A stretch of DNA of 63,813 nucleotides, counting the filler. It is 11 parts of 11 records of this genome, joined end to end, with 100 filler letters (N's around TTAATTAATTAA, not from the genome) between each part and the next. Parts side by side here need not be neighbours in the genome. Positions count along the whole stretch, not along the records: positions 22,665 to 29,788 come from SRR9670534_1081; 10 more parts are not named here. The stretch is one strand, 5' to 3'. This document shows positions 3,882 to 63,813 of this stretch, piece by piece. The first letter of the stretch is position 1. Each line of letters opens with the position of its first letter. The notes under the pieces are model-generated. The model was not told the origin of the DNA. It was given only the letters and a program-made list of their open reading frames with translations, and searched no databases. Position numbers and translations under genes: made by a program.

Positions 3882-6800
3882 ATGAAAAAGGCAGGGTCTA
3901 AGAGCGTAAATCTTTCTGTACCCAAAGTTCTACCACATTCGAGAATATCTCCATCACCATCAGTTGATGTTGGTAATTTTGGTTTGCAAATAGATCGACG
4001 AAAGAGATCTACGATTATTTCATTTATAGAAAGTCCTGGAAATTCTCACGTGGAGTCCGAAGAACGCGAAAGAGCGGAAACTCAAGTAGAACCCAGGAGA
4101 GGATGTTTTAAATGCATTCCACCATTATTCCATAGGTCAAGTCCTACAAGTTGGTATAATCCAAGTTTCATTGACAAAGACTTAGAAAAAGAATATAAAG
4201 AATTTTCAGCGAGCCATTTTTTACGAAAACGCAAAACAGCATTTTTGTATCTTGTAGCGTTGAGTATCATATGGTTGATATACGAATTGCTTGTTCATTT
4301 CCATTTCCTGAAAGATGTCAAAAATAAACGTCAAAGTCATTTTTATATGAGGATTGGGATTACCTTGATGGTTCTTGTTGTTAATTTAATTGCTGTTATT
4401 TTCACGCTTTTAATCAGACGAGATAAAATAGACAAAAACTGGATCATTCAATCAGGTGTAGCTATTCAAATATGGATCGTTTGTTTAATCTATACAGCTG
4501 TAATGTCTTTGGAAATACAGTATGAAAGGTTTGACCATAAACTTCGCAATAATACAAATTCTTCACTAAATGAGGAATCAATCATAGCGATTGATAAAGG
4601 AGAAGTTAAAATTATTGTTTTAAACATGTGCGTCATTTGGCTCTTGTACATTTTTTTCAGTTTTCATCTGCAAATAACGATTCTCCTTGCTTTAATTCAA
4701 TCAGCATTGATCGAAGTGTTTACACATATTGATATCGATAATGACGGTAATATGACTCTTTCACATTGTCCACCTATGTACATGGGAACGGCCTTTTTGG
4801 GCCATTTAAGCATGCACCTTATGGGCATCCATTGTTACCTGATGGACCAGGTACGACAAAGGACAGCATTTTGGAAGATCTTACAGTCCTGTATCATTAA
4901 AAAGAATCACGAAGCTGAAGCGTCTTTGATCAAAGATTCATTACATTGTGTTCTTCCTGACACCATTGTTGATGAGTTGCAAGACAGAGAGTACTTTCAG
5001 GAACTTTGTAGAGAAAACGTTACATTTGAACCAGATGAATTTGTAGGGCGTGTTACCATTAAGAAACCAGCCAGACCCAGGAGTTCAACTTTCTTCAAAA
5101 ATACTGTTTTAAACACTATGTCCAGTGAAATTACCAATAAATACATCAAAAAGATTGAAGATGTTTCTATTCTTTTTGCGGATATAAAGAATTCAGTGAA
5201 AATGATGAAGAACAAAGATCCAGCAGATGTGGTCAAACTCTTGAATGATTTATATGGTAGGTTTGACACCCTGTGTGTTCGAAGTGGATGCGAAAAGATT
5301 GCCACATTGGGTATTTTTTACTTTTTTTAATTATGCAGTATTCAATGAATACTATTCATAGATAAACTTTATCTGATAAAGTTGCTTAGCATCATTCTAA
5401 TTCATATGGTATTTTTAGTAAAATCTGATATTACGTAATAATAGAAGAACGTTCTTCTATTTAATAGAAGAACGTTTGAAAATAACAATCTATAATAATT
5501 CAATAATCATAATGTTTTCATTGATATATGTTCTTATTTTACTGGTTATTAATAATAATAGTAGAGATTATTTCATGTATGTACTAATTGATACATTGGT
5601 ACTCATTCAAGGTACATGGCATGTATGTACGTACATGCCCCCTGGATTTTCATCTTGTCTCTCATTTAAGATTGGCTGATCTTTGCATAAGCTTTTTATT
5701 AAAATAAGCATTGATACGGTATCTATTTGATACTTTAATAATAGTAATAAAACATAGAAATTAGTGTCGATGTATTGTAATAATACATGATATCATTTAT
5801 AGCAAACAACAATGAAAAATATAACTAACAACAATAAAAACATGTTCATTTGATAATAATAATACCAATTAAAATAATGTGATAGCATAGCGAGAACAAG
5901 ACGCAAGAAATTGTTATTAGAATACTAATCTATTACCTAATATTAATAGAATAATAATAATACTAATAATACATAACAAGGTAATAAAACCGTAACAAAA
6001 TAACACAGTGATAAAGCAAAACTTATTTTTCTTATTACCATATTATACAGATTTTTTACACCAAAGTAGTTAGTAAAGTCAAGATTCTTTAGGTGATTGT
6101 TACTATTGTGTTTCGGGTTGTCCAGTTCCAAAGAATGACCATGCATTTTGTTGTGTAAATTTTGCTGTACAAATGATCAAAGTTATTGACGAATTTAACT
6201 TTGATCATGAACATGAAATGAGTGGAAAAATTGGTATGAGAGTTGGGATTCACAGTGGTGTAGTATTTTGTGGTATATTTGGCGACAGAAGATTTAAATT
6301 TGATGTTTTCTCTGAAGATGTCAACATAGCGAACGAGACGGAAAGTACCGGGATGGAAGGCAAAGTTCATATAACCGAAGAATGTTTAATGTATTTAGTC
6401 AAAGATGCAGAAAAATTAGACCGTGAGTATGTTGTCGAGGAAAGAGCTGAGAATGTTGATGAAGGTACATTATGTACATATCCGTATTATTGTAATACAA
6501 TATACTGTATGGCATACATGAAAGCGTCAACTATAATAAAGTACGAACGACAGCGACATCTTTTTTGGAATTTATCATATACGGTATCTATGTATGATAG
6601 TTCTATTTTTAGATCGCAACACTTATTTCATACGTCCGAAGAGACCCTTTTTGTCCAGACTTCTTACTCAACGTGATGATGATTTCGATATGGACATCAT
6701 TGAATACTATACACAAGATGATATGGTATTTTGCCCTGACAATGAAACTATTGCTCAAGTTAACATAGACAATCATGATTTATCCACAGAAAGGCGTTAC

Positions 6801-7873: not shown

Positions 7874-7973
7874 NNNNNNNNNNNNNNNNNNNNNNNNNNN
7901 NNNNNNNNNNNNNNNNNTTAATTAATTAANNNNNNNNNNNNNNNNNNNNNNNNNNNNNNNNNNNNNNNNNNNN
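7874..7973. other. Artificial contig spacer N44-TTAATTAATTAA-N44. Identical spacers at 22565-22664, 29789-29888, 34590-34689, 37773-37872, 41365-41464, 49151-49250, 53763-53862, 57281-57380 and 61200-61299.
   Basis: Ten identical 100-nt blocks with a core giving stops in all six frames. Genes are cut off at the block edges. Confidence 0.98.
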
Positions 7974-22520: not shown

Positions 22521-22731
22521 TAATGTTTCTGACAGTCATTATTATTATTATTATTATTAATAATNNNNNNNNNNNNNNNNNNNNNNNNNNNNNNNNNNNN
22601 NNNNNNNNTTAATTAATTAANNNNNNNNNNNNNNNNNNNNNNNNNNNNNNNNNNNNNNNNNNNNGGAAGGCCTTGTCAGGCCTTCCTGATACAGCTTCAC
22701 CATTGCCAATCGTGATGTTTTTCAAATTGTT

Positions 22732-25726
22732 ATGAAAATAACTCCGGAATTTTTGAGAATTAAAAGTGAGATGGCTGATGGTCGTTTTGATGTTTCTATC
22801 ATGAAACGGATTAATGTCTTGAGAGATATGATTATTGGCTGGCATGAATATTCTTTTGGTGGTTCTGATTTTGAGCAGATTTTCAAAACCTATGTTAAGA
22901 AACATTTTCAGCATATTTCTGGTGGTACTGAACTATGTTATTTGTCCTACGAGCAGCTGAAAAGATTGATGGATAAAATTCGTGACAATTACATACATAT
23001 GAGAATGATACCAGATCGTGAAGGTCATCAAGATGAGATAGATGGAATGCAGATGATAATTGACGATGAGATAAGACATTTTGTGGATGAAAATAATCTA
23101 AGGTATAATTACTATGTATGTAAACACATAGGTAATTATGTCTCCTTTTCAGGATTGATAATGAAGGTACCTAAATACATAACTAGGCCTTGGTATGTTG
23201 ATGTATTGATGAGAAATAAAAATTTGCTTGAAAATCTAGGTGTTAGCGTTGAAAATTCGATGCACCTCTGTAGCGGTGCCTTTTGCGTTTCTGTAAACCA
23301 GTTTTTGAATGTACGTCACAGCAATTGCTTTTTGTGTAAAGCAATTGCAAGAACCGGTGTTATATATCATGATATAAAAGCAAAACTTGTTGCTTTTTCT
23401 CCTCATTTTTCTTCTACTTTATCGTTGGCAGGTGAATTTTGTAAATCTCCTAAATTTGATTTTGCGAAAATGTCTAACATAATTCTTGGAGATACTACAC
23501 GTCGCTGGCAAAAAGTAGAATTCTTTAGATTACGAGAGCACATTTGCTGCATTCTGAATGCATATTTAGTACGCAACCAAAGACTGAAGCTTGAGAGTAG
23601 GTCAATGAAATTGGATGGTCTGGTTGAAGACCTATTGGATGATTATTCTGTAGCTTTGAAGAAAAATATTCCAGGCATAAAATTATATGATTTGAATATC
23701 CACATAATTTCTTGGTATGAGACAACATACAGTTTAAAAGAAAAAGAAATTGCCTTTCATCAGTTTGTTTTGAAATTGGCTAATGCTGTTTATGGTTCTG
23801 GCAATGAACCGGTATCAATCAAAGCTGAAGATTTTGAGACGTTGAAGAATTTGTTGAGATTGTCATATAAAGAATATGTATTGTACAAGTTACGAACCTC
23901 TCTTAAAGCAATGGAAGAGAAAGACAAAATTGAAAATGAAATGAAAGAAATGATTGAAGGCTGGTTATGCGAAAATGGCATAAGGTATGTTGCCAATTAT
24001 AAATTATTTACTTATTTATCTCAAGATGTCTTTCAGGGGCAAGATTGTGTCGGTTTCACCGTCTACATCTCAATGAATGATGGTACTGATTGGAATGACT
24101 GTTGGTGTTGTCCAATACATATTATTAGCAATAGGGACATCTACTTGTGTTTTATAATAGGTGAACATGTCAACTTTGATGACGTCAATAAGGATAGCGA
24201 CAACTTTTTGCTTTTTATTAATTTTTTCCATCGAGGGTTTTTTGATGATTGTAAACTGGGCTTTGAAACTTATAGGAGTTACTTCAATGGACTATATGTT
24301 ATGTTTCTTAGATCTAAAATCAGTTTGGTGCTGTTGAAAACACAAGTGGAAGATGTCTTTTTCGAAATCTGGAAGTATATTTCCATTCATAGTTTGTTTA
24401 ATAACATGTGTTTCTTGTTAGGTGATACCGAAATGGATGGTGAAACGAACCCTAATCCTGCTAAAGCCCCTAAAGTCAATTATGATCCTGATGCTATTTT
24501 GGATGAGGACGAAGAAGGTGAAGTGCAGGCAAAAGTATTTATTAAAGGTTAGTTCATTCCTGTGAATGAAATGGCGATTTTTTTCGTTGAAAATCCAGAA
24601 ATTTGGCATGTTCTTTCACAGAAGACTGGTATATCGATGCTGGTCAATGCTATGAACAAGAAAAAGTCACTGAGTAAGCTTATGAAAAATAATCTTTATG
24701 CTTATAATCCCTTTATAGATGATTATCGTGTGAGTGACATAACCATGTACTTCAATTCTGGCAAAGCATATGATAAGGTTCGTCTCCAACCTGAGGTGTT
24801 ACCTGGTGAAGAATTGAAAGAACCTTTGTTTGTGAAGTATTTTAAAGAAATTTTTCCTGCTGAAGATATTGAAGCTGCAAGAGAGTCGATTGCTAAATTT
24901 ATGGTTTGTTATCAAAAGAGAGATGAGAAGGGTAACCTTGATACAAGCTCAGAAACAAGAATGAAAAAATGGAAGTCGGTGGTAGATGCTTCTGGTATCT
25001 GTTCATTTAGTATTACGATCACTGATGGTAAAGACGGGTGGGATACTCAAATTTTAACTCATTATAACATATGTAGCGATGTCGATGCCATAATCATAGC
25101 TGATACATGGTTACAAACTAAGAAGATAACAACTACCATGTCTCAAACAAAGGTTTCGAAGTTGGCTGTGCATTGGAAATTGCTAAGTATTCTTTTTGCT
25201 AATATGCACATTGAAAATGTAGATGTCTCCTCTGTGTTTTTGATTACGCCAATTACGCTGATTCATGATGAGGTCGAAAATAAGATGCTGGTGATTAGAA
25301 AGATGGTTGATGCATTGAATATTTTTTTCAACCAACATTCCATCTTCAAATTCAAACTTTATATCTTCGAAGGCTGGACCATTGCGCAACCTAAGGCTAT
25401 TGCTGACCCTTTTATCAGGGCAAATAATATTTGGGCTGAAATTGTTGAAAGTGTTAGACAACGTAATAGAATTCGATTGGTTCCTCTTGATGATACCAAA
25501 AAAGCTGAATTGATTGATCAAGGATGGTCAAAGACCATATTCTTTGGTGACAGGTTGGGCATGTTTCGTTTTTATCGAAACTACCCTTCCAATGGTAGCC
25601 TGTTTCAAGAGTTAAGTAATACTTGCTGAAAAATGATTGCGAATATTTCAACTCTGGCTAAAGAGGAATTGGGAAAGAAGGAAAGTAGAATCGATGAATA
25701 TCTGTATGGACCCATCACTAAGAAGG
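22732..25726 (+). pseudogene. Very long ORF1-like region of the LINE (~1000 codons) interrupted by single in-frame stops TAG 24550 and TGA 25627
   Basis: Track ORFs starting at 22732, 24562 and 25633 share one frame (offsets 1830 and 2901 nt). The region looks compositionally like the EN-RT region. Function is inferred from position only. Confidence 0.65.
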
Positions 25727-26068
25727 GTAAACATACTTATATATTTGATTTTTTAAATTTGAATTTAAATTTGAATTTAATTTTGAATTCAATTTTTAAT
25801 TTAATCTTTCCCTTTAGTGGTGAAAGGTACGTGCAAGAGACTGAAGAAATACTGAAGCAATCTGGTGTAATTTCCTGCTGTCATTATGAAGGTGTTTTTT
25901 CTCAGATTATGGTTTGTAGTTCTTTTTATTATATGCTTTTTTGTTGGTATTTCTATATTTGTCATTTAATAAAATTTTTCATAGGCTGTTTTACTCAATT
26001 TTGTACCTTGTACACCCAATATTGCCTTACATATTCGATTTTTTCAAATTTTTCGTTTTTTCATACAG

Positions 26069-29000
26069 ATAAATTGCTCTGTTTCTTAAATTTTGATTTT
26101 TTGAATTCTTTAAATTACAATGGAATTAATAAAGGATTCGCTGTTGAATTTGACAAATACAGTACTGTTTCTGGAATGAATCTGTTACAGTATCATGTTA
26201 AAGTAGGGCTTAAAGTTAGAAAAACTAAGAATGATATAACTGTTAAAGCTATTGATGCTGATGAAATAAAGGAAGAACTTAGTAAGCTTCAGCGTGATTC
26301 TACGGGTAGGATAATAATTGATGTTTCTAGCAATAACCCTCAAAGGAAAATCGAAATTCAATTGGGTAAAATTAGATTCTTCTATGTCAACATAAGGAGT
26401 GTTCGTAAAAAAATTGCTAAATTTATAATGGACATTTTGCGTAAAGTTGATGTTTTAATGTTAACTGAAACTTGGTTGACTGAAGAGTTTAATTTTAAAT
26501 CAAAGGAGTTTACTTTTTTCAATATTAATAGGAAAGATGGATTTGGGGGGTCAATGATAGCAGTACATAAGCATTTGGGAAAAAGCACACAATTAACTGT
26601 AACGAATAATGATGTTATGCAAATTCTGAGTATTGAGGTACCTGACTTTTATATAACAGTAGGATATAGCAAGCCAAAAACTGCGATTAACATTATTGAA
26701 AATGAGTTATTTAAACATATCAATAATGTTAAAGACTTGAACAAAAGACATATCATCATGGGTAATTATAATTATTGTGCTATTACTGATCCTATAACTA
26801 CAAATTGCATTGCTCATGCTTGTAGTTCAGGTTTTGAAAATTTCACATTTCCAAGTACAAGGCCAGGGTCAAAGGGTATTGACTGGTCACTGCTTCAACT
26901 TGATACTTTTGATAAGATTGAGTCTTTCAGAAGTTATTCATTATCATGTACAGATCACTACTGTTATGATATGGTTTTAAAATGTTGTATGGAAAGACGA
27001 GGCATTATTGAAAATATTAATCTCTGGAGGAAGATTAATTTCCAAGAATTTAATGAAGAATGGAAGACAATTCTGACAGATAAAGCTCTTACTTTTCTTT
27101 TCGATAATAATCTGGATATTCATTCAGATCATTTCTTTGACGTGATTAACTGTAAACTGCATAACAATTTTATTCAGGCTGCTTTACAGGTAACTACACA
27201 AAGGGTTGTACCCTTAGTGAAGAAAAATTTGTTACAAACTAAATTCAGAGCGCTTCCTATATTTAGAGAAGATGAGAGATTATGCTTTCTAAAAAGACAG
27301 AACAAGCTTTTAAAGAAATCACTTAACAAATTTAACTCGATTGAGCTGAATGAAGCAATTAATGGGAAGATGAAGAAAATTGGCTTGAAAATGTATCAAC
27401 GTAAGAGTTTTTTGAGATTCTGTTATCTGAACGAATTACAGCAAAGTGATAGTGGTAAGTTTTTTGCTACTATTAATCAGCTAAGCTTAAATCAGAAAAA
27501 ATCTAAGCAAGAAATTTTAGAACTGAAAGTTGATGGTGGTATAACTACCAATAGCAAAGAAATGGCTGAATACATGAATGTTTTTTATATGGATAAGGTT
27601 GAACAATTATGCTTGGCAGAAGGATGTCCTTTTGTACCATTGCAGGAATATCATACTAAAATTCCTTTTACCATTATTGAGGATTATGAATTTGATTTGA
27701 AATCAGCATTACAGAAATTTTCAATTAATAAATGTGTTCTCGATCAAGAAATGTCAAGAAGGATTTGGAAATCCTTGATTCTAGGTAATTTAGACTTCTT
27801 TAATAATTTCTTTCAAAAAATTATGTAGTCTGGTGATATTCCAAGTGATTGGAAAATCAGCGAGATCAGGCCACTTTACAAAAAGGGGTCACCCTTATTG
27901 GCAAATAATTATAGGCCAATTAATATAATAAGGCCACTTGCTATAATCTTTGAAGAATTATTATTACAGGTCATGGACAACAATAATTGGTTAGAAGTAA
28001 GCAGTAACCAATATGCTTACCAAAAAAATGTGGGATGCCAAGATGCACTACTTTTTCTTGAAGTAAAAAAGGCAGCTTTTTTGGATCGAAAAATGCATTT
28101 TGCTGTTTGTTGTCTTGACGCAACTAGCGTGTTTGACACGATTACTGGTAGTAATCTGGTGAAAGATTTAGAAGAAAGAAAGGTATCTAATCATATTAAG
28201 CATGTGCTTGTTAACTATCTTCATGATAGATACTCCTATACTAAGATTCAAAATGAACATTCAACAAAACGCTCAAATGTAATTGTGGCCCAGCAAGGTT
28301 CGAAGCTGGGCCCAAAGCTGTTTACGCTGCACATGGATCCAATCTGTAAGATGACGGAATCATGTAATGACTGTTTAAATAGGATTAACAGTACATGTAA
28401 CTGTATTCACATTAGCATTTACGCTGATGATATAGCACTTTTTTGCAGTGCTGCAAATATTAATCAGGTGCTTTCAAATTTAGAGCATAAAGTTGCACTT
28501 GTGAAGGAGAAGCTTGACGAATTAGGAATCTTTCTGAATGCTGGAAAGACTGAACTAGCTGTTCATTTGGCTGGTGCTAAAATTGACTCAAACATCTATA
28601 GAATAAAAGTTGGATCACAATATGTTTACAATAAGGATGTTGTGAAATACTTGGGAGCTGAGATGTCTACAAATGGTACTGAAACTACCATTTCCTGTGT
28701 CAAACGAAGGTTGTACGTTGGTATGCAATCTATAAATTCTTGTAATAGCTTTCTATCTCTAAAATCTCTTCAGATTTTTTATAAATCATACATACTGAGT
28801 GTGTTTGGAAACAACAGCTTAATGTGGAATCGTAAAGATTTCAAGAAGTTGATGGTTCTTGCACATGATAAAATGAAAGCTACTTTACAATTTCCTCGAT
28901 GGATGAGTAATACACTTGTTTGTTCTTTATTAGGTATAATGCCTGTAGATGATTGGATGATTAGGAATAAAGTGATTTGGCTTCTTAAAGGGCTATGTAT

Positions 29001-29421
29001 GGAAAAACAAGTGCCATTCTTTCAAATTCTGAGAAATCAATTGGCAAATCAACATGGATGGCAGATACCAAGAATGGTATATGACAATGGCCATATCTTG
29101 GAGTTGGCAAGAACTAAAGCCAATCAAGTTTTGGGGAGAGAATTGGGGTTCAATGGCTGGCTTGGCTTTTGGAACTCTGACGATGACAGGAAAAAGACAC
29201 AAGTCTTTAAGAAGATGCTGCAAATCCTCAATGAGGAAAAAAATGAATTGATGCAACAAGACACAGTTGACGCTGAAAGAATAGCAGGTATAAAACGAAA
29301 TGTTCTTCATGCTATCTTCTCGAGAATTCCAGGTTCTATGAGATTTTTTGAATGGGATAAAGATCTTTCAAATAAAAGAAACTGGAAAGCATTTATTAAT
29401 CAAGCTAATATGCACAAATGA
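26069..29421 (+). pseudogene. APE endonuclease + reverse transcriptase (ORF2-like) with a nonsense TAG at 27826-27828
   Basis: The conserved RT segment GDIPSDWKISEIRPLYKKG..NYRP continues in frame right after the TAG. The catalytic GDFN motif reads GNYN. Confidence 0.9.
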
Positions 29422-29762
29422 GTGTGGACGAAAAGGTGGAGAGATCAGAATACCACGATTGGCAGTGAAGATGACTCTGTCACGTAGTACATACTATTAT
29501 TGAGTCTATTATCACTTTCTTATAAAATATGCGTTTTGATTATTTTTTATATAAGTGTTGTAACACTTTTTTGATGATATAACATATGTTATACTATTCC
29601 TAGTATTATCTAGTGATTATATAATGCATGAATTTGCATTTGATTGATGACTGAAATGATTAACTTGCATATTTAATATAAGATATTTTGTTTGTTGTAA
29701 ACTGCCATTTTTATTATAAAATTCCCCTTTTTATGTGTACGTACTTCCTCAGTAATTGAGCC

Positions 29763-29788
29763 AATAAATGTTATGTTATGTTATGTTA
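29763..29788 (+). repeat. LINE 3' end: AATAAA followed by (TGTTA)4, truncated by the contig end
   Basis: Directly visible. Short tandem-repeat tails are typical of CR1/L2/RTE-type elements. Confidence 0.85.
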
Positions 29789-29888
29789 NNNNNNNNNNNN
29801 NNNNNNNNNNNNNNNNNNNNNNNNNNNNNNNNTTAATTAATTAANNNNNNNNNNNNNNNNNNNNNNNNNNNNNNNNNNNNNNNNNNNN

Positions 29889-44900: not shown

Positions 44901-47900
44901 TATTTGGGAAAGGATAGGAAAGCGTTGTTATTGATGAAGCATTACTGGCGTTGGCTCGTTTGTCAATAATTTGCATCCATAGAAAGATATTGTCAAGCAA
45001 GTTAGTAATGGCAGGTAAGGCATGATATAGCGTTGCGTTCCACATTATGTTAAATTTTATACCAAAAGGATTTATCTTTTCCTTGGATTTTAAACTAACA
45101 TAATGTATAAGATAATAGTATATTTTACCAACTTGATCCAATAATTCCGTTGATTCCTTTGGAAATTCAGCTGTTTTCATCATTTTTAACAACAACTTTA
45201 GATGATGTGGTTGTTTAGCAATACTGCTATTCCATAAAATTTCAGGATTATCTGGAGAGTATCGATTATTTTCATTAGCATAGTCATGTGTATAAAAAAT
45301 TTTCTCGGGTAAATGTGTATGGGAAGCATTTTTTGCTAATGTACTGTTTAAAGGGAAAAATGATATACCAGCATCAGGAAATTCAACCTTTTGAACTTTT
45401 TTGCTGTAAAGAAGTCCAAGGAATGCTCCAACAAGGATGAAGATTACAGGCATTAGCATTATGCAAAAACAACCAATAGGATGTCGTAAATTATCTTTAT
45501 GCTGAGTGAGAAATAGTGATTTGAAAATTTGTCTGTCACGCTCGTGACCGGTTAAAAGTTCAACATCATCAGGCACTTTTAGAACTTTTGATGCCTCATT
45601 TTCTTCTTCAGTTTTTATGGAACCTGATAGATGACTGGGTCCTTCTTCTGAATCTTCTTCATTTTCTTGTGATAATGAATGATTATTATTAGTAGTAATA
45701 TTCAATAAGTTATTATTATTAATGGACTGGTTATGCTTGGTAGACTGTATCTCTTTCTTTTCAACATCGCCCAACTTTAAAAATACCTCTTCTAATGTGG
45801 TAACAGAAATCCCATAGGAAGCCAATCGCAGAGATTCTTTGTTATCGTCAAGTTTTTGAAACAAATTTGAAAATGAAGGAGCTGCATTGAGAGGCAAAAG
45901 TATAGTGCATTCGTTGGCATGATACCTCAGCATTTTGGCTGTATAGATGTTAGCGTCCTTTTTCACAAATTTCACAATCTGATTTGGATCAACGTTTTTA
46001 TCTTCAAGGGTCAAACTAAAAATACTACTTATAGCCACGCCCACTTTCATAGAAAAAATAAATTTATCGTTAAGCTATAGCCTTATTATTAGTCCACCAA
46101 AATTATGCATGTTATTCAAATACTGCATTTACAATATACTATAATGTCGTTTAAGATCTAGGGTGTAGTTTTGGAGCAAAAATAGATGTCGATATATACC
46201 AGAGGGTTAAAGTGATGGATAAGTGCCTAACTAGATGTCGACATTATCTATTTTGATCCCCAAAATAGGGCTACTCCCAATTGATGGCAGCCACTACTGT
46301 GGTCCTTGAAACCAAAACTAACCCGACTAACTTGCGTGTTTATGCAGCCCGGCCATAATAGGTAATCTACATAATATTCAGTATCTATTGAAGAGTACAG
46401 ACAATCATGATAAGCCTACTTCAAGTGATAACCAAGACCAAACTTATTCTTTAAGAACAGTGATGTTCCACAGCAAGTTAAGCGTCCTCCGCTTAGAAAA
46501 GCTTTTCGGTCAGCAAGAACATCAGCTTCATCCATGAAGTGAGTTGTCAGTATGATTGTGCATTCTATATAGACATAAGTATTCAATAGATATGTCATAT
46601 GGGTCACAATGGTGTTGCAATTGCAAACAAGTATATTACATCTATTACAATATTTACATCTATTAAATGTAATTTGCCGAATTTTCCAAGTTACTATTTG
46701 AAGCTACACAAACCCTTTTTAAGTTCTTGTAGGAGTGACCAAAGATTTCGTCGTGATACAACATCAATACCAGCAGTGGGTTCATCTAAGAATAGCAACT
46801 TTGGCTTACCAATTAAGGCCATGCTAATGGATACTTTTCTTTTCTCTCCTCCACTTAAAAATTTGCATTTTGATTTTTCAACTTCTTCTAACTCTAGCTT
46901 TCTAAGTAACCTTTTAATCTAAATAATTTTCAAAATGGAAAAAGCAATTCGATTTATTGAACCACAGCAATGATCAAATTAAAAATAAAAGCATGTTAAG
47001 GTGATCATTATTATTAATAATATGATAATAAATCCCAACATACGCATACCTGAGATTTAGCCTTTTCATTTGAGACGCCTTTCAGCTTTGCTACAAAGTT
47101 TAAATGTTCTTTTGGTGTCAGCATTTCGAATAAGAAATCATCTTGGGGACAATATCCTGTCTTGTCTTTAATTTTTATCATATCTTTGGTGTTTGAGATC
47201 ATCTAAAATCCAATTAGTTTATAGCATAGTACCTAGCTCTTGATTCGCATAACATAAGTTGAAATTGAAATTGAAATAATAATTGTGTAAAAATGTGCGA
47301 CATCTTTTTTTAATATAACTCTTCTTACATGTATTAATAATAATAATCAGCTGTTATAAAGATACTCAATACTGACATAATTATGTATTTTAGAAGTTCC
47401 AGAGGTGGGGTTGATTAATCCCATAAGCATTTTAAATAATGTCGTCTTTCCTGCACCATTATGACCCAAAATAGCTGTAATTTGTCCTTCATAAATATCT
47501 AGTGAAAAATTATCCACTGCAATTAACGTTTTCTTTTTTTGCTCATATATTTTTGTCAAGCCCCTTATTTTAACAGTTTCGTGTCCTATCAATTCCTTAT
47601 CTGGCTTTTCTAGGTAGGTATTATCATAAGTATCACTTTTAAGGCTTTCTTCGTCCTCATCAGATGAACTCCGACTCCTGTTCCAGTGTGAACGCATGCA
47701 ACAAAAACAGCAATGCAGACGTTGCCCAACTGCTCCTGGATTGATTGATGTATTGACAGTAAAATCAAACTTATTATCCATAATATATTAATTATTAACA
47801 TTAATATTAAATATATTAATAATCAAAATGCTTTACAACTGTCTTATTAATAATGATTACGCATATTAAAAATTTCTTATTAATAAACATACCACAAGTA

Positions 47901-61299: not shown

Positions 61300-63813
61300 T
61301 ATTCCATTTCATAAATTGGTAGGCCATGAGTATTCCATTCCAATTAATGATTGTGCCATATTAAACACAAGCTATTTTGTATCGTCCAATGTTGGGCCTA
61401 TTATTGCCAAAAGCTCGATTCCAAAACCAGATCCCAATTTAAACCCTGAAGTTTTGGCAAATCCTAAGGATTTGTCAAAACTCAGGGTATTCCAAATGAA
61501 TGTACATAAAAATTTGCATAAAAATTTCGAACTACAAAATTCACTCGCAAAAGAACAATGCCCAGTAGTTGCCCTCACTGAAACACATTTGCGAAAACAG
61601 GACCTGTACGTTCTACCTGATTATCAAGTATTCAGGGCCGACTGTAAGATAATGCCTAAAAAGTCAAAAGATGGCGGTGTGCTCATCGGTGTGCACAAAT
61701 CACTACATGTAGTGTGATCTTGTGTGCGCCGATGAAGTTAACGAATTTGTCGCTGTTAAAATTTTTAACAAACTTTTTAACATTTTGATAATGGTCGTAT
61801 ATCGCAGACCAGATGTCGACCCTGAGAAGAATGATCACTTATTCTTGGCAATGAAAAATTGTATTTTAAATTCTTGCAGGGACCATCTAGTTGACTTTTA
61901 TTCATGTAATATATTAGGTGACTTCAATATGAAAGAAATTATCTGGGATTCCTATGTTTTTCCTAAGAAACAACAAGGTATTCTAAGGACATTTATGGAC
62001 GAACTTATGTTTCAGAACATACCAGAACATACAATTTTTTGTAACACGGGAAAACAGTGTCCTTAACCTGTTTTTGACATCACGACCAGATAGTATATCT
62101 TCAAATAAGGTTATCCCATCCCAAGTGAAAAGTGATCATGATGCTATTGTTACAGAAATATTTTGCCTCCTAGATAAAAATATACAATTTACCAACAGGC
62201 ATTGTTGGAATAAGGTTAAGTGGGAAGATTTCAGTTTTGAACTAGATTACTTAGCATTGACCCTAACGTTGAATGATCTAGACTTTTCTACACAGGAAAA
62301 CGTCAATAGAAAATGGGGTGAAATTAAGAGTATAATTGATAAGGTTATTGTTTTACATGTACCTACATGTTCGCTTAAAACAAATTGCTTTCATTTAAAT
62401 CATATTGACGAAAGTGACATTCTTAAGGCGATGAAACATGATCAGAACAAAATTTTTGCTGAATGTAGACGTTTGAAAAATCCTTCTACCCTAAAAGCTA
62501 TTTTAAACAGGGCAAATAAGGATGTTCGTAGAAGGCTGCGCATTGAAGGCATACAGCAAGAACTGCAGGAGTCAGAGTTAGCTGACACTGATATGCCTAA
62601 ATACTGGAAAAATGTGACCAAAAAGTGGAAACCAGTTAATACCATTCCGGATATAGTCACTGAATCTGGGGAAATTTGTAAGTCAGATAAAACTGAAGCT
62701 GAAAGTTTTAATGCTTATTTTCAGTCTGTGTATACTCAGGATCCAAAAACTGAATTCCCCAGTACTAAGGCGAGGGCACCTTATTTAGATTTGACAAACT
62801 TCACAATTCTGGAATTAGACAATGCATTGAGTAAATTTAATTCTTTTTCAGCCCCAGGCATAGATGGTTATCCTCTAGCTATCTATAAATATGCAGGATA
62901 TGCCTTTAAAAGTTTTTTACTGGATTTTATAAATGGAATTGTTAGTAGGGGGTTCTATGTATCTAAATGGAAACGTAGTTGTATTAGCCCTATTTATAAG
63001 AAAGGCCCAAAAAATGCAATAGAAAATTACCGCCCCATGTCACTGACATGTACATGTTCAAAGATAGTAGAATCTCTATTGAGATGCCGTATTGAGAGCC
63101 ATTGGGAAACTCATAATTTCCTGTACAGCTCTCAGTACGGTTTTGTTAAAAACCGCAGCTGTATTACACAACTTATTGACTATATTAAATTTATTCTAGA
63201 ATTGTATGAACAAGGGGATCCAGTTGTTACAGTATATACAGATTTCAGGAAGGCTTTTGAGTCAAAAGTTTTGACTCAGTGAGTCATAATGCCATCCTGA
63301 ATCTGTTACTGACATGTGGCATTATGGGGGGCCCCTCTTATTTTATCAAAAATTTTCTTATTGGCCATCAACAATGCATTAGAATAGGAAACTATACCTC
63401 CGAGTACAAGGGCGTCTAGAGTGGTGTCCCCCAGGGTTCTGTCCTGGGGCCCCTGCTCTTTGTACTTCTAATTAATTCGGTTGATGAGGTATGTGATTCC
63501 AGCCATCTTTGGAAGTACGCAGACGACATGAAATTAAGTGCAATTTTAGCAAAGTATGAAGAGTTGCAAAAAGATGTCGATGCAGTTGCCGGGTGGGCAC
63601 ATGAGTGGCTTCTCAGATTCACTGAATCAAAATGCCACTCAGTGTTCTATTTTTGTAAGGAAGAATTAATCCCTGATACCCCTATCACTATTAATAATAT
63701 ACCTATTGATCGCATTGAGAAAGAAAGGGACCTAGGTGTTGTCATTGACGGCAAAGCCTACCAGTTCATGAATAGGTTACCATTTCATGAACTGGCCTAC
63801 CAGTTCATAAATT
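61300..63813 (+). mobile_element. Degenerate CR1/Jockey-type LINE ORF2 (APE + RT) with frameshifts near 61720, ~62060 and 63261 and a stop at 63416
   Basis: VALTETHL, YQVFRAD, GGVLIGV, VYRRP, ILGDFN, SDH, APGIDG, NYRPMSLT, QYGF, DFRKAF, SGVPQGSVLGPLLF, YADD and ERDLGV. Confidence 0.92.

Follow-up and report, generated by a model that had tools for sequence, protein, structure and literature searches.

For any splicing of the LINE described here, the closest working analogy would be the cryptic splicing of human L1 RNA (SpIREs). In the passages of that report cited here, splicing inhibits L1 retrotransposition and spliced copies are generally dead ends (PMC5860796). In both cases a LINE transcript contains splice donor and acceptor sites, which work in L1 and are candidates here, and a dead-end fate would be likely for any spliced form of our element as well. 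In contrast, the L1 sites treated in these passages lie in the 5′UTR and in ORF1, and their splicing was shown by RNA and by genomic copies, whereas the candidate sites of our element follow the upstream ORFs and precede the APE domain, in a tract of intron composition. In a limited search of open-access full text, no APE-type LINE was reported to have a functional internal intron.

An earlier note on this DNA had proposed that a spliceosomal-intron-like cassette at 25727-26068 could switch between an ORF1-only product and a fusion of ORF1 to APE-RT, and had named two precedents. The first is the setting of Gag:Pol ratios by splicing. In Ty1/Copia elements alternative splicing yields a GAG-only subgenomic (shGAG) RNA, for which the cited part of the source gives experimental proof and conservation across elements, in plants (PMC5580714). 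This resembles the logic of a designed cassette, since one long coding unit gives more structural than catalytic protein by splicing and the unspliced RNA is the full-length one. Unlike our LINE, however, Ty1/Copia as treated there are LTR elements of plants, and in our element TGA 25627 already terminates the upstream ORF. The second precedent is found in Penelope-like elements (PLEs), which keep introns through retrotransposition, a trait that is termed 'highly unusual among retroelements' in the cited portion of the source (PMC8557442). PLEs use a GIY-YIG endonuclease and a mechanism different from that of an APE-type LINE.

Two systems acting at translation were also compared, both as described in sections of PMC3894237. 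In the LINE SART1, stop-start coupling takes place at -UAAUG-, where the stop and start codons overlap and downstream RNA structure matters. Similarly, the upstream stop of our element adjoins a downstream ATG (TGA-AAA-ATG), and ribosomes could pass into the spacer and the APE-RT ORF. In contrast to SART1, 3 nt separate the stop from the ATG here, both codons share one frame, and the downstream 120 nt fold no better than shuffled sequences. The second system, 2A/StopGo recoding, is described in these sections for APE-type non-LTR elements with the motif DxExNPG/P and is a further known route from a single long LINE frame to separate products. The nearest motif in our element, DGETNPNP, differs by having N in place of G and is found 1.3 kb ahead of the cassette.

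The LINE contig and its long reading frame

The window, i.e. the whole stretch of DNA that was analysed (63,813 nt, GC ~0.30-0.35), contains ten linkers of the form N44-TTAATTAATTAA-N44 (e.g. 7874-7973, 22565-22664 and 29789-29888) joining ~11 short contigs. Thus, the window consists of separate contigs that were concatenated, and neighbourhood across linkers is meaningless. The other contigs carry animal-type, intron-bearing genes (guanylate cyclase, CID/CREPT, C2 domains, ABCA-type transporter, RPL15e). The contig considered here (7124 nt) holds a single LINE-like element and no other content. Its main features are the following:

22665..29788, plus strand: LINE contig, one element, with an N44-TTAATTAATTAA-N44 linker on either side
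22732..24549, plus strand: ORF-A, 606 aa when started at its first ATG, an orphan with no recognisable ORF1 domain
24550..24552, plus strand: in-frame TAG, with the next in-frame ATG at 24571
24571..25626, plus strand: ORF-B, 352 aa, an orphan
25627..25635, plus strand: TGA-AAA-ATG, where the upstream ORF ends at an in-frame stop and a same-frame ATG follows 3 nt on
26176..26178, plus strand: in-frame ATG, alternative start of APE-RT, ~60 codons ahead of the endonuclease, with G at −3
26425..26814, plus strand: Exo_endo_phos (APE) domain, Pfam PF03372, E 5.8e-06, residues 266-395 of 25630-27825
27826..27828, plus strand: in-frame TAG directly ahead of the RT domain
27880..28662, plus strand: RVT_1 reverse transcriptase domain, Pfam PF00078, E 4.3e-22, in the same frame and downstream of APE
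29419..29421, plus strand: terminal TGA, end of the long frame
29768..29788, plus strand: (ATGTT)n tail, 4.2 copies, at the 3′ end of the contig

One frame is open over 2244 codons (22690-29421, ~6.7 kb) and is interrupted only by TAG 24550, TGA 25627 and TAG 27826. No frameshift was found in it, and the remaining two sense frames contain 167 and 306 stops. The RT assignment is supported by 23823 library proteins at E ≤ 0.001 and by R2 RT chains at 1.3e-11. With an APE domain, a downstream RT in frame and a simple-repeat 3′ tail all present, the element is an APE-type LINE. At the start of the contig (22665-22686) a perfect 8-bp hairpin, GGAAGGCC-TTGTCA-GGCCTTCC, was observed. Furthermore, 19 nt near the 5′ end (22701-22719) are 84% complementary to 29449-29467, just past the terminal stop, so that the ends of the RNA could pair.

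Database comparisons mark the element as a new orphan LINE, the closest protein found being ~31% identical. A query with the RT alone gave 21 matches, the best of them 31% identical and all named 'hypothetical protein' at most, and the top matches of a 1200-aa query against the representative library were multi-RT chimeras of 25% identity. The best library match, P0001, carries IELNPGP near its N-terminus. Among proteins of near length no relatives of 25630-27825 were found, no locus with a related RT was confirmed in metagenome, genome or viral collections, and an exact 23-mer adjoining the cassette had 0 matches in metagenome contigs. An Rfam search of the LINE contig gave nothing at E ≤ 0.1. 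There is no further copy of the element within the window, where the sole other RT is a distant one (62131-63611) with ~22% identity to that of the first element. It belongs to a second, unrelated LINE fragment (61300-63813) whose APE and RT pieces do not share a frame.

The protein encoded upstream of APE-RT had been labelled 'ORF1-like'. Its position fits this label, whereas no ORF1 domain, motif or homologue was found, and the label can thus be kept from position alone. The upstream 965-979 aa gave no Pfam family, no PDB sequence match and no CCHC or GDSL/esterase-type motif. For the 965 aa of 22732-25626 no homologue was found in an index of 5.8 billion proteins, and an ESM Atlas search with ORF-A and ORF-B gave no usable match. 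AlphaFold2 single-sequence models reached a mean pLDDT of 36.8 for ORF-B and 35.6 for ORF-A. These searches point to an orphan LINE-encoded protein of a kind not recognisable from Pfam, PDB, the protein index or the Atlas. The sequence NPGP is absent from all sense frames, and with it the DxExNPGP motif of 2A/StopGo; the nearest sequence, DGETNPNP (24436-24459) with LLGD ahead of it, lies ~30 codons before TAG 24550 and is the sole such motif in the frame.

In-frame ATGs are located near the three stops, at 24571, 25633 and 27823. The 120 nt following each TAG (24550 and 27826) fold better than shuffled sequences, with z-scores of −2.44 and −3.38, respectively. A stable RNA structure was not found in the 120 nt after TGA 25627 (z −0.49), where 53 of 200 shuffles fold equally well. 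The three in-frame stops are possibly leaky stops or sites of stop-restart, or they reflect plain decay.

Splice-like signals between the upstream ORF and the endonuclease

The region between the TGA-AAA-ATG element and the endonuclease is built up as follows:

25633..25726, plus strand: coding-like block in frame 1, GC 0.37, 0.23 bits/codon compared to an element mean of ~0.27
25727..25817, plus strand: tract I1, intron-like, 91 nt, AGG/GTAAAC...CTTTCCCTTTAG/TGG (slashes mark the borders), GC 0.14, T 0.53, frame 1 stop-free
25728..26133, plus strand: maximal AT/T-rich compositional segment of the element, 406 nt, 19.6 bits
25752..25804, plus strand: 12-nt tandem repeat TTTAAATTTGAA, 4.4 copies, within I1, its period being a multiple of 3
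25818..25911, plus strand: E2 island, 94 nt, GC-normal (0.38), only frame 1 open, ends in ATG
25853..25855, plus strand: TGA that is met if 25727-25817 alone is removed
25912..26068, plus strand: T-rich intron-like tract, 157 nt (73 nt to the acceptor at 25984), GC 0.25, T 0.53, frame-specific coding signal absent
26069..26175, plus strand: AT-rich yet coding-like block in frame 1, 0.21 bits/codon

The anatomy of the cassette given in the earlier note was borne out by a check of the sequence, which found all GT/AG sites, lengths and coordinates within 25727-26068 to be correct. The 91-nt intron-like piece starts with GT (25727-28) in AGG/GTAAAC and ends with AG (25816-17) after CTTTCCCTTT, and the further donors AAG/GTACGT (25827) and ATG/GTTTGT (25912) as well as the acceptors ending at 25984 and 26068 are present. 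The frame arithmetic is equally sound. The unspliced frame is open, removal of 258 nt, of 342 nt or of 91 + 242 nt leaves it open, and in-silico removal of 25727-25817 alone shifts the frame to ...VVKGTCKRLKKY, followed by the TGA at 25853-25855. The product ascribed to this last event, an ORF1-only protein, does not fit this copy. TGA 25627 and ATG 25633, which had gone unmentioned, sit 100 nt upstream of the cassette, so that the upstream ORF and APE-RT are already separated in this copy. As the upstream ORF ends at TGA 25627, removal of the 91 nt would just shorten the downstream ORF, which would then stop after 44 codons, and the product would be a 44-codon downstream peptide.

For comparison, 18 host introns were hand-picked from the window via noisy ORF-joining screens (48-189 nt, GC 0.12-0.28, T > A in most). 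The catalytic domain of the guanylate cyclase (5311-6085) is split, one ORF ending at 5327 and the next beginning at 6077, which shows that host intron sizes span ~50 nt to at least ~770 nt. The 18 introns served to train a crude score composed of a donor, an acceptor and a composition model, which is partly circular because hand-picking favoured pyrimidine-rich acceptors. Under this score the pairs 25727-26068, 25727-25817 and 25912-26068 rank 1 (27.6 bits), 2 (24.8) and 4 (22.7) among the 6954 GT..AG pairs in the frame that span 40-400 nt; host introns reach 5.4-26.4 bits under leave-one-out. The outer sites are among the best of the frame (donor 25727 is number 5 of 344 GTs, acceptor 26068 number 3 of 383 AGs), and the inner ones are ordinary (acceptor 25817 is number 30 of 383, donor 25912 number 67 of 344). 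The donor AGG/GTAAAC recurs at a host candidate intron (48226), the CTTTCCCTTT tract at the 3′ end of I1 is free of A/G, and both tracts are like host introns as regards length, GC, T-excess and end motifs. According to the ranks and scores under the host-trained model, the resemblance to host introns is real. The extreme AT-richness noted for 25727-25817 is confirmed.

The composition of the region is exceptional within the element. GC is 0.14 in I1 and 0.19-0.25 in the second tract (0.19 for 25912-25984) versus 0.37-0.38 in the flanks, and 75-nt windows with GC ≤ 0.20 occur within the 6.7-kb frame solely at 25709-26138. The compositional score of 25728-26133, 19.6 bits, compares to ≤ 6.6 elsewhere in the frame, and this segment is the sole noncoding-like one of the 2244 codons. 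The AT-rich tract extends 65 nt past the best acceptor at 26068. Minimum GC per 75 nt is 0.093 in I1 and the lowest value in the other long ORFs of the window is 0.173. An Asn-rich coding tract with a GC of 0.17 is present on the minus strand (45649-45723) in a large exon ORF of the ABCA-type transporter gene. Thus, the host does have AT-rich low-complexity coding sequence, although this host tract is A-rich and not T-rich and is less extreme than the LINE cassette.

One explanation of these signals is a designed alternative-splicing cassette, in which 25727-26068 would be an in-frame intron of 342 nt enclosing an inner exon of 94 nt that breaks the frame. The template would be the unspliced RNA, which would encode APE-RT in cis, and splicing would set the ratio of upstream protein to APE-RT, tune APE-RT or yield dead-end forms. 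The candidate introns score in the upper part of the host range or above it and fit host introns in length, GC and T-excess, removal of the 91 nt alone leads to a stop, and the cited part of PMC5580714 provides a precedent in LTR elements. An open frame would also be expected, since under cis-preference the unspliced genomic RNA must encode APE-RT, and a retained intron would therefore have to stay stop-free. Against such a design, TGA 25627 ends the upstream ORF, so that the spliced product would be the 44-codon peptide instead of an ORF1-only protein, and the protein upstream lacks any ORF1 hallmark or homologue. The frame-keeping options are also as frequent as expected by chance: of the seven donor-acceptor combinations formed by the three donors and three acceptors, two are in frame. 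Removal of the 91-, 73- and 157-nt pieces, singly or paired, leads to stops, so that joint removal of the pieces most like introns (the 91-nt one together with the 73- or 157-nt one) would not leave the frame open. Moreover, an in-frame spliced RNA with a working APE-RT would presumably copy itself and erase the cassette from the lineage, and L1 splicing is a dead end according to the passages cited above (PMC5860796). Together with the ordinary rank of the inner sites, these points make us lean against a designed ORF1-only/fusion switch, and we consider a designed cassette unlikely.

Comparable splice-like signals are found elsewhere in the ORF, which also speaks against a design. At least six canonical-looking GT..AG pairs of 45-53 nt with a GC of 0.24-0.28 lie in clearly coding parts of the LINE, one of them within the RT. 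Among them are 23985-24036 (AAG/GTATGT...TCTTTCAG/G), 24674-24718, 23103-23152, 28721-28773 and 24375-24421, and use of four of these six pairs would disrupt the frame within 1-13 codons. These short pairs could be cryptic splice sites or chance occurrences. Splice signals are cheap in this AT-rich ORF, which holds 344 GT and 383 AG. Introns spanning the in-frame stops were considered as well and rejected. The two candidates, 24548-24598 (51 nt) and 25616-25663 (48 nt), would both keep the frame, but have a GC of 0.35 and 0.33 and rank only 326 and 1235 of 6954. A duplication inside the cassette was likewise discarded, as its best local alignment was equalled by 5 of 300 shuffles and is of low complexity.

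The same composition and end motifs might be expected of constitutive introns of the host type, always removed from the transcript of a LINE-derived host gene. Taking out the two natural introns breaks the frame, however, and the open frame would be left unexplained. The 3′ repeat tail of a LINE and three in-frame stops are retained at this locus. Constitutive introns are not kept in a retrotransposed LINE copy. We regard constitutive introns as extremely improbable.

Open frame and coding signal of the cassette

Between 25630 and 26176 frame 1 contains 0 stops in 182 codons, and the other frames contain 16 and 18. In dinucleotide-preserving shuffles the probability of a stop-free frame is 0.0002 for the cassette, and none of 5000 shuffles kept all 182 codons open. 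For the two intron-like tracts alone, local shuffles gave modest values (P = 0.065 and 0.10), partly owing to the 12-nt repeat in I1 and to the T-richness of the second tract. Stops in the 18 host introns amount to 0.090 per codon; out of 54 frames just 4 are open, and these belong to introns no longer than 72 nt. At this rate 30 + 52 codons would be open with a probability of ~4e-4. Stops at background rate, as usual inside introns, do not occur in the cassette. Furthermore, 33 AT-rich segments (≥ 15 bits, 136-2095 nt) were collected from both strands of the whole window, and a stop-free frame was found in a single one, 25728-26133, where it is the element's own frame. A segment that is the only open one of 33, and open in this particular frame, is probably translated.

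The coding signal itself is uneven. The blocks at 25633-25726, 25818-25911 and 26069-26175 are coding-like in frame 1, with 0.21-0.23 bits/codon compared to ~0.27 for the element. In the two tracts G at codon position 1 amounts to 0.06 versus 0.26-0.35 in the flanking blocks, and 25912-26070 has a coding signal of ~0 bits/codon with no frame preference. The second tract would give a 53-residue stretch rich in Phe, Tyr, Cys and Leu, which is odd for the N-terminus of an enzyme, and nowhere else in the frame are 19-mers as hydrophobic as in 25912-26068. A test of codon-position periodicity is underpowered at 31-53 codons, where even a true APE block gave P = 0.14. Taken from its composition and frame, the tract looks like sequence constrained only to stay open.

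Noncoding-like composition could also mean that the region is an untranslated spacer between two ORFs, the upstream one stopping at 25627 and APE-RT starting at ATG 26176, with the open frame a coincidence. This ATG is in frame, has G at −3 and lies 546 nt past TGA 25627 and ~60 codons before APE. Among the 150 matches listed, the best-scoring stretch starts no earlier than query residue 239 (~nt 26350), and the ~240 codons after 25630, cassette included, have no counterpart in the other LINE ORF2 proteins among these 150. Such a start site fits these matches, but an open frame that no shuffle of the 182 codons reproduced, that is unique among the AT-rich segments and that runs through three coding-like blocks would be hard to ascribe to coincidence. 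We consider lack of translation quite unlikely.

Alternatively, the tracts may be junk specific to this copy, i.e. repeat expansions or insertions in an already dead copy, which would be uninformative on the family. The three in-frame stops of the copy and the 12-nt tandem repeat in I1 would agree with this. Nevertheless, expansion after the death of the copy would escape any filtering of stops, yet both tracts are open, and 2244 codons have been kept without a frameshift. This possibility is, in our opinion, very unlikely.

A translated spacer and its meaning

The explanation that we prefer, to which we would give an even chance of being right, is that the cassette is a translated, drifting spacer and that its splice-like signals have no designed role. 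The spacer would span 25728-26133, following TGA 25627/ATG 25633 and preceding the endonuclease (~26350). To make APE-RT, ribosomes would cross the tract either after a restart at ATG 25633 or on reading through from upstream. Since this crossing would be needed for APE-RT, stops and frameshifts would be purged and the residues would be free to vary. In the absence of amino-acid constraint the tract may drift to the AT/T-rich composition of noncoding host DNA, and frame-neutral 12-nt repeats may accumulate in it. Such a composition would suffice, in this genome, to give the look of an intron. Minor dead-end cryptic splicing is possible and would be unnecessary to the explanation. What the sequence shows directly is the composition, the splice-like sites, the open frame and the places of stops and ATGs; we infer translation of the tract, the site at which it would begin, and a lack or minor extent of splicing.

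A translated spacer is favoured by the open frame, the coding-like blocks, the TGA-AAA-ATG element, the frame-keeping period of the repeat, the low-GC coding tract of the host and the commonness of splice-like pairs in the ORF. The stops met on removal of the 91-, 73- and 157-nt pieces and the 65 nt by which the AT-rich tract exceeds the best acceptor count in its favour as well. Evidence against it comes from the top-ranked outer sites, the in-frame 342-nt pair, the A/G-free acceptor tract, the donor recurring in the host and the extreme GC of I1. The G-poor codon position 1, the ~0 bits/codon of the second tract, the modest probabilities for the lone tracts and the odd Phe/Tyr/Cys/Leu stretch also count against it.

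If the cassette were designed after all, LINEs could, like Ty1/Copia, balance their products via the host spliceosome, and no APE-type LINE bearing an intron and a built-in control of splicing would have preceded this one. Cis-preference would in that case leave a readable footprint in the form of a stop-free intron. The test for a stop-free frame against host introns is applicable to any similar candidate. If, on the other hand, the preferred explanation of a translated spacer holds true, the element is an orphan LINE with a translated junk-like spacer and illustrates how an AT-rich genome can give rise to intron-like sequence within an open frame. This would call for caution with gene finders and with intron calls made from sequence only.
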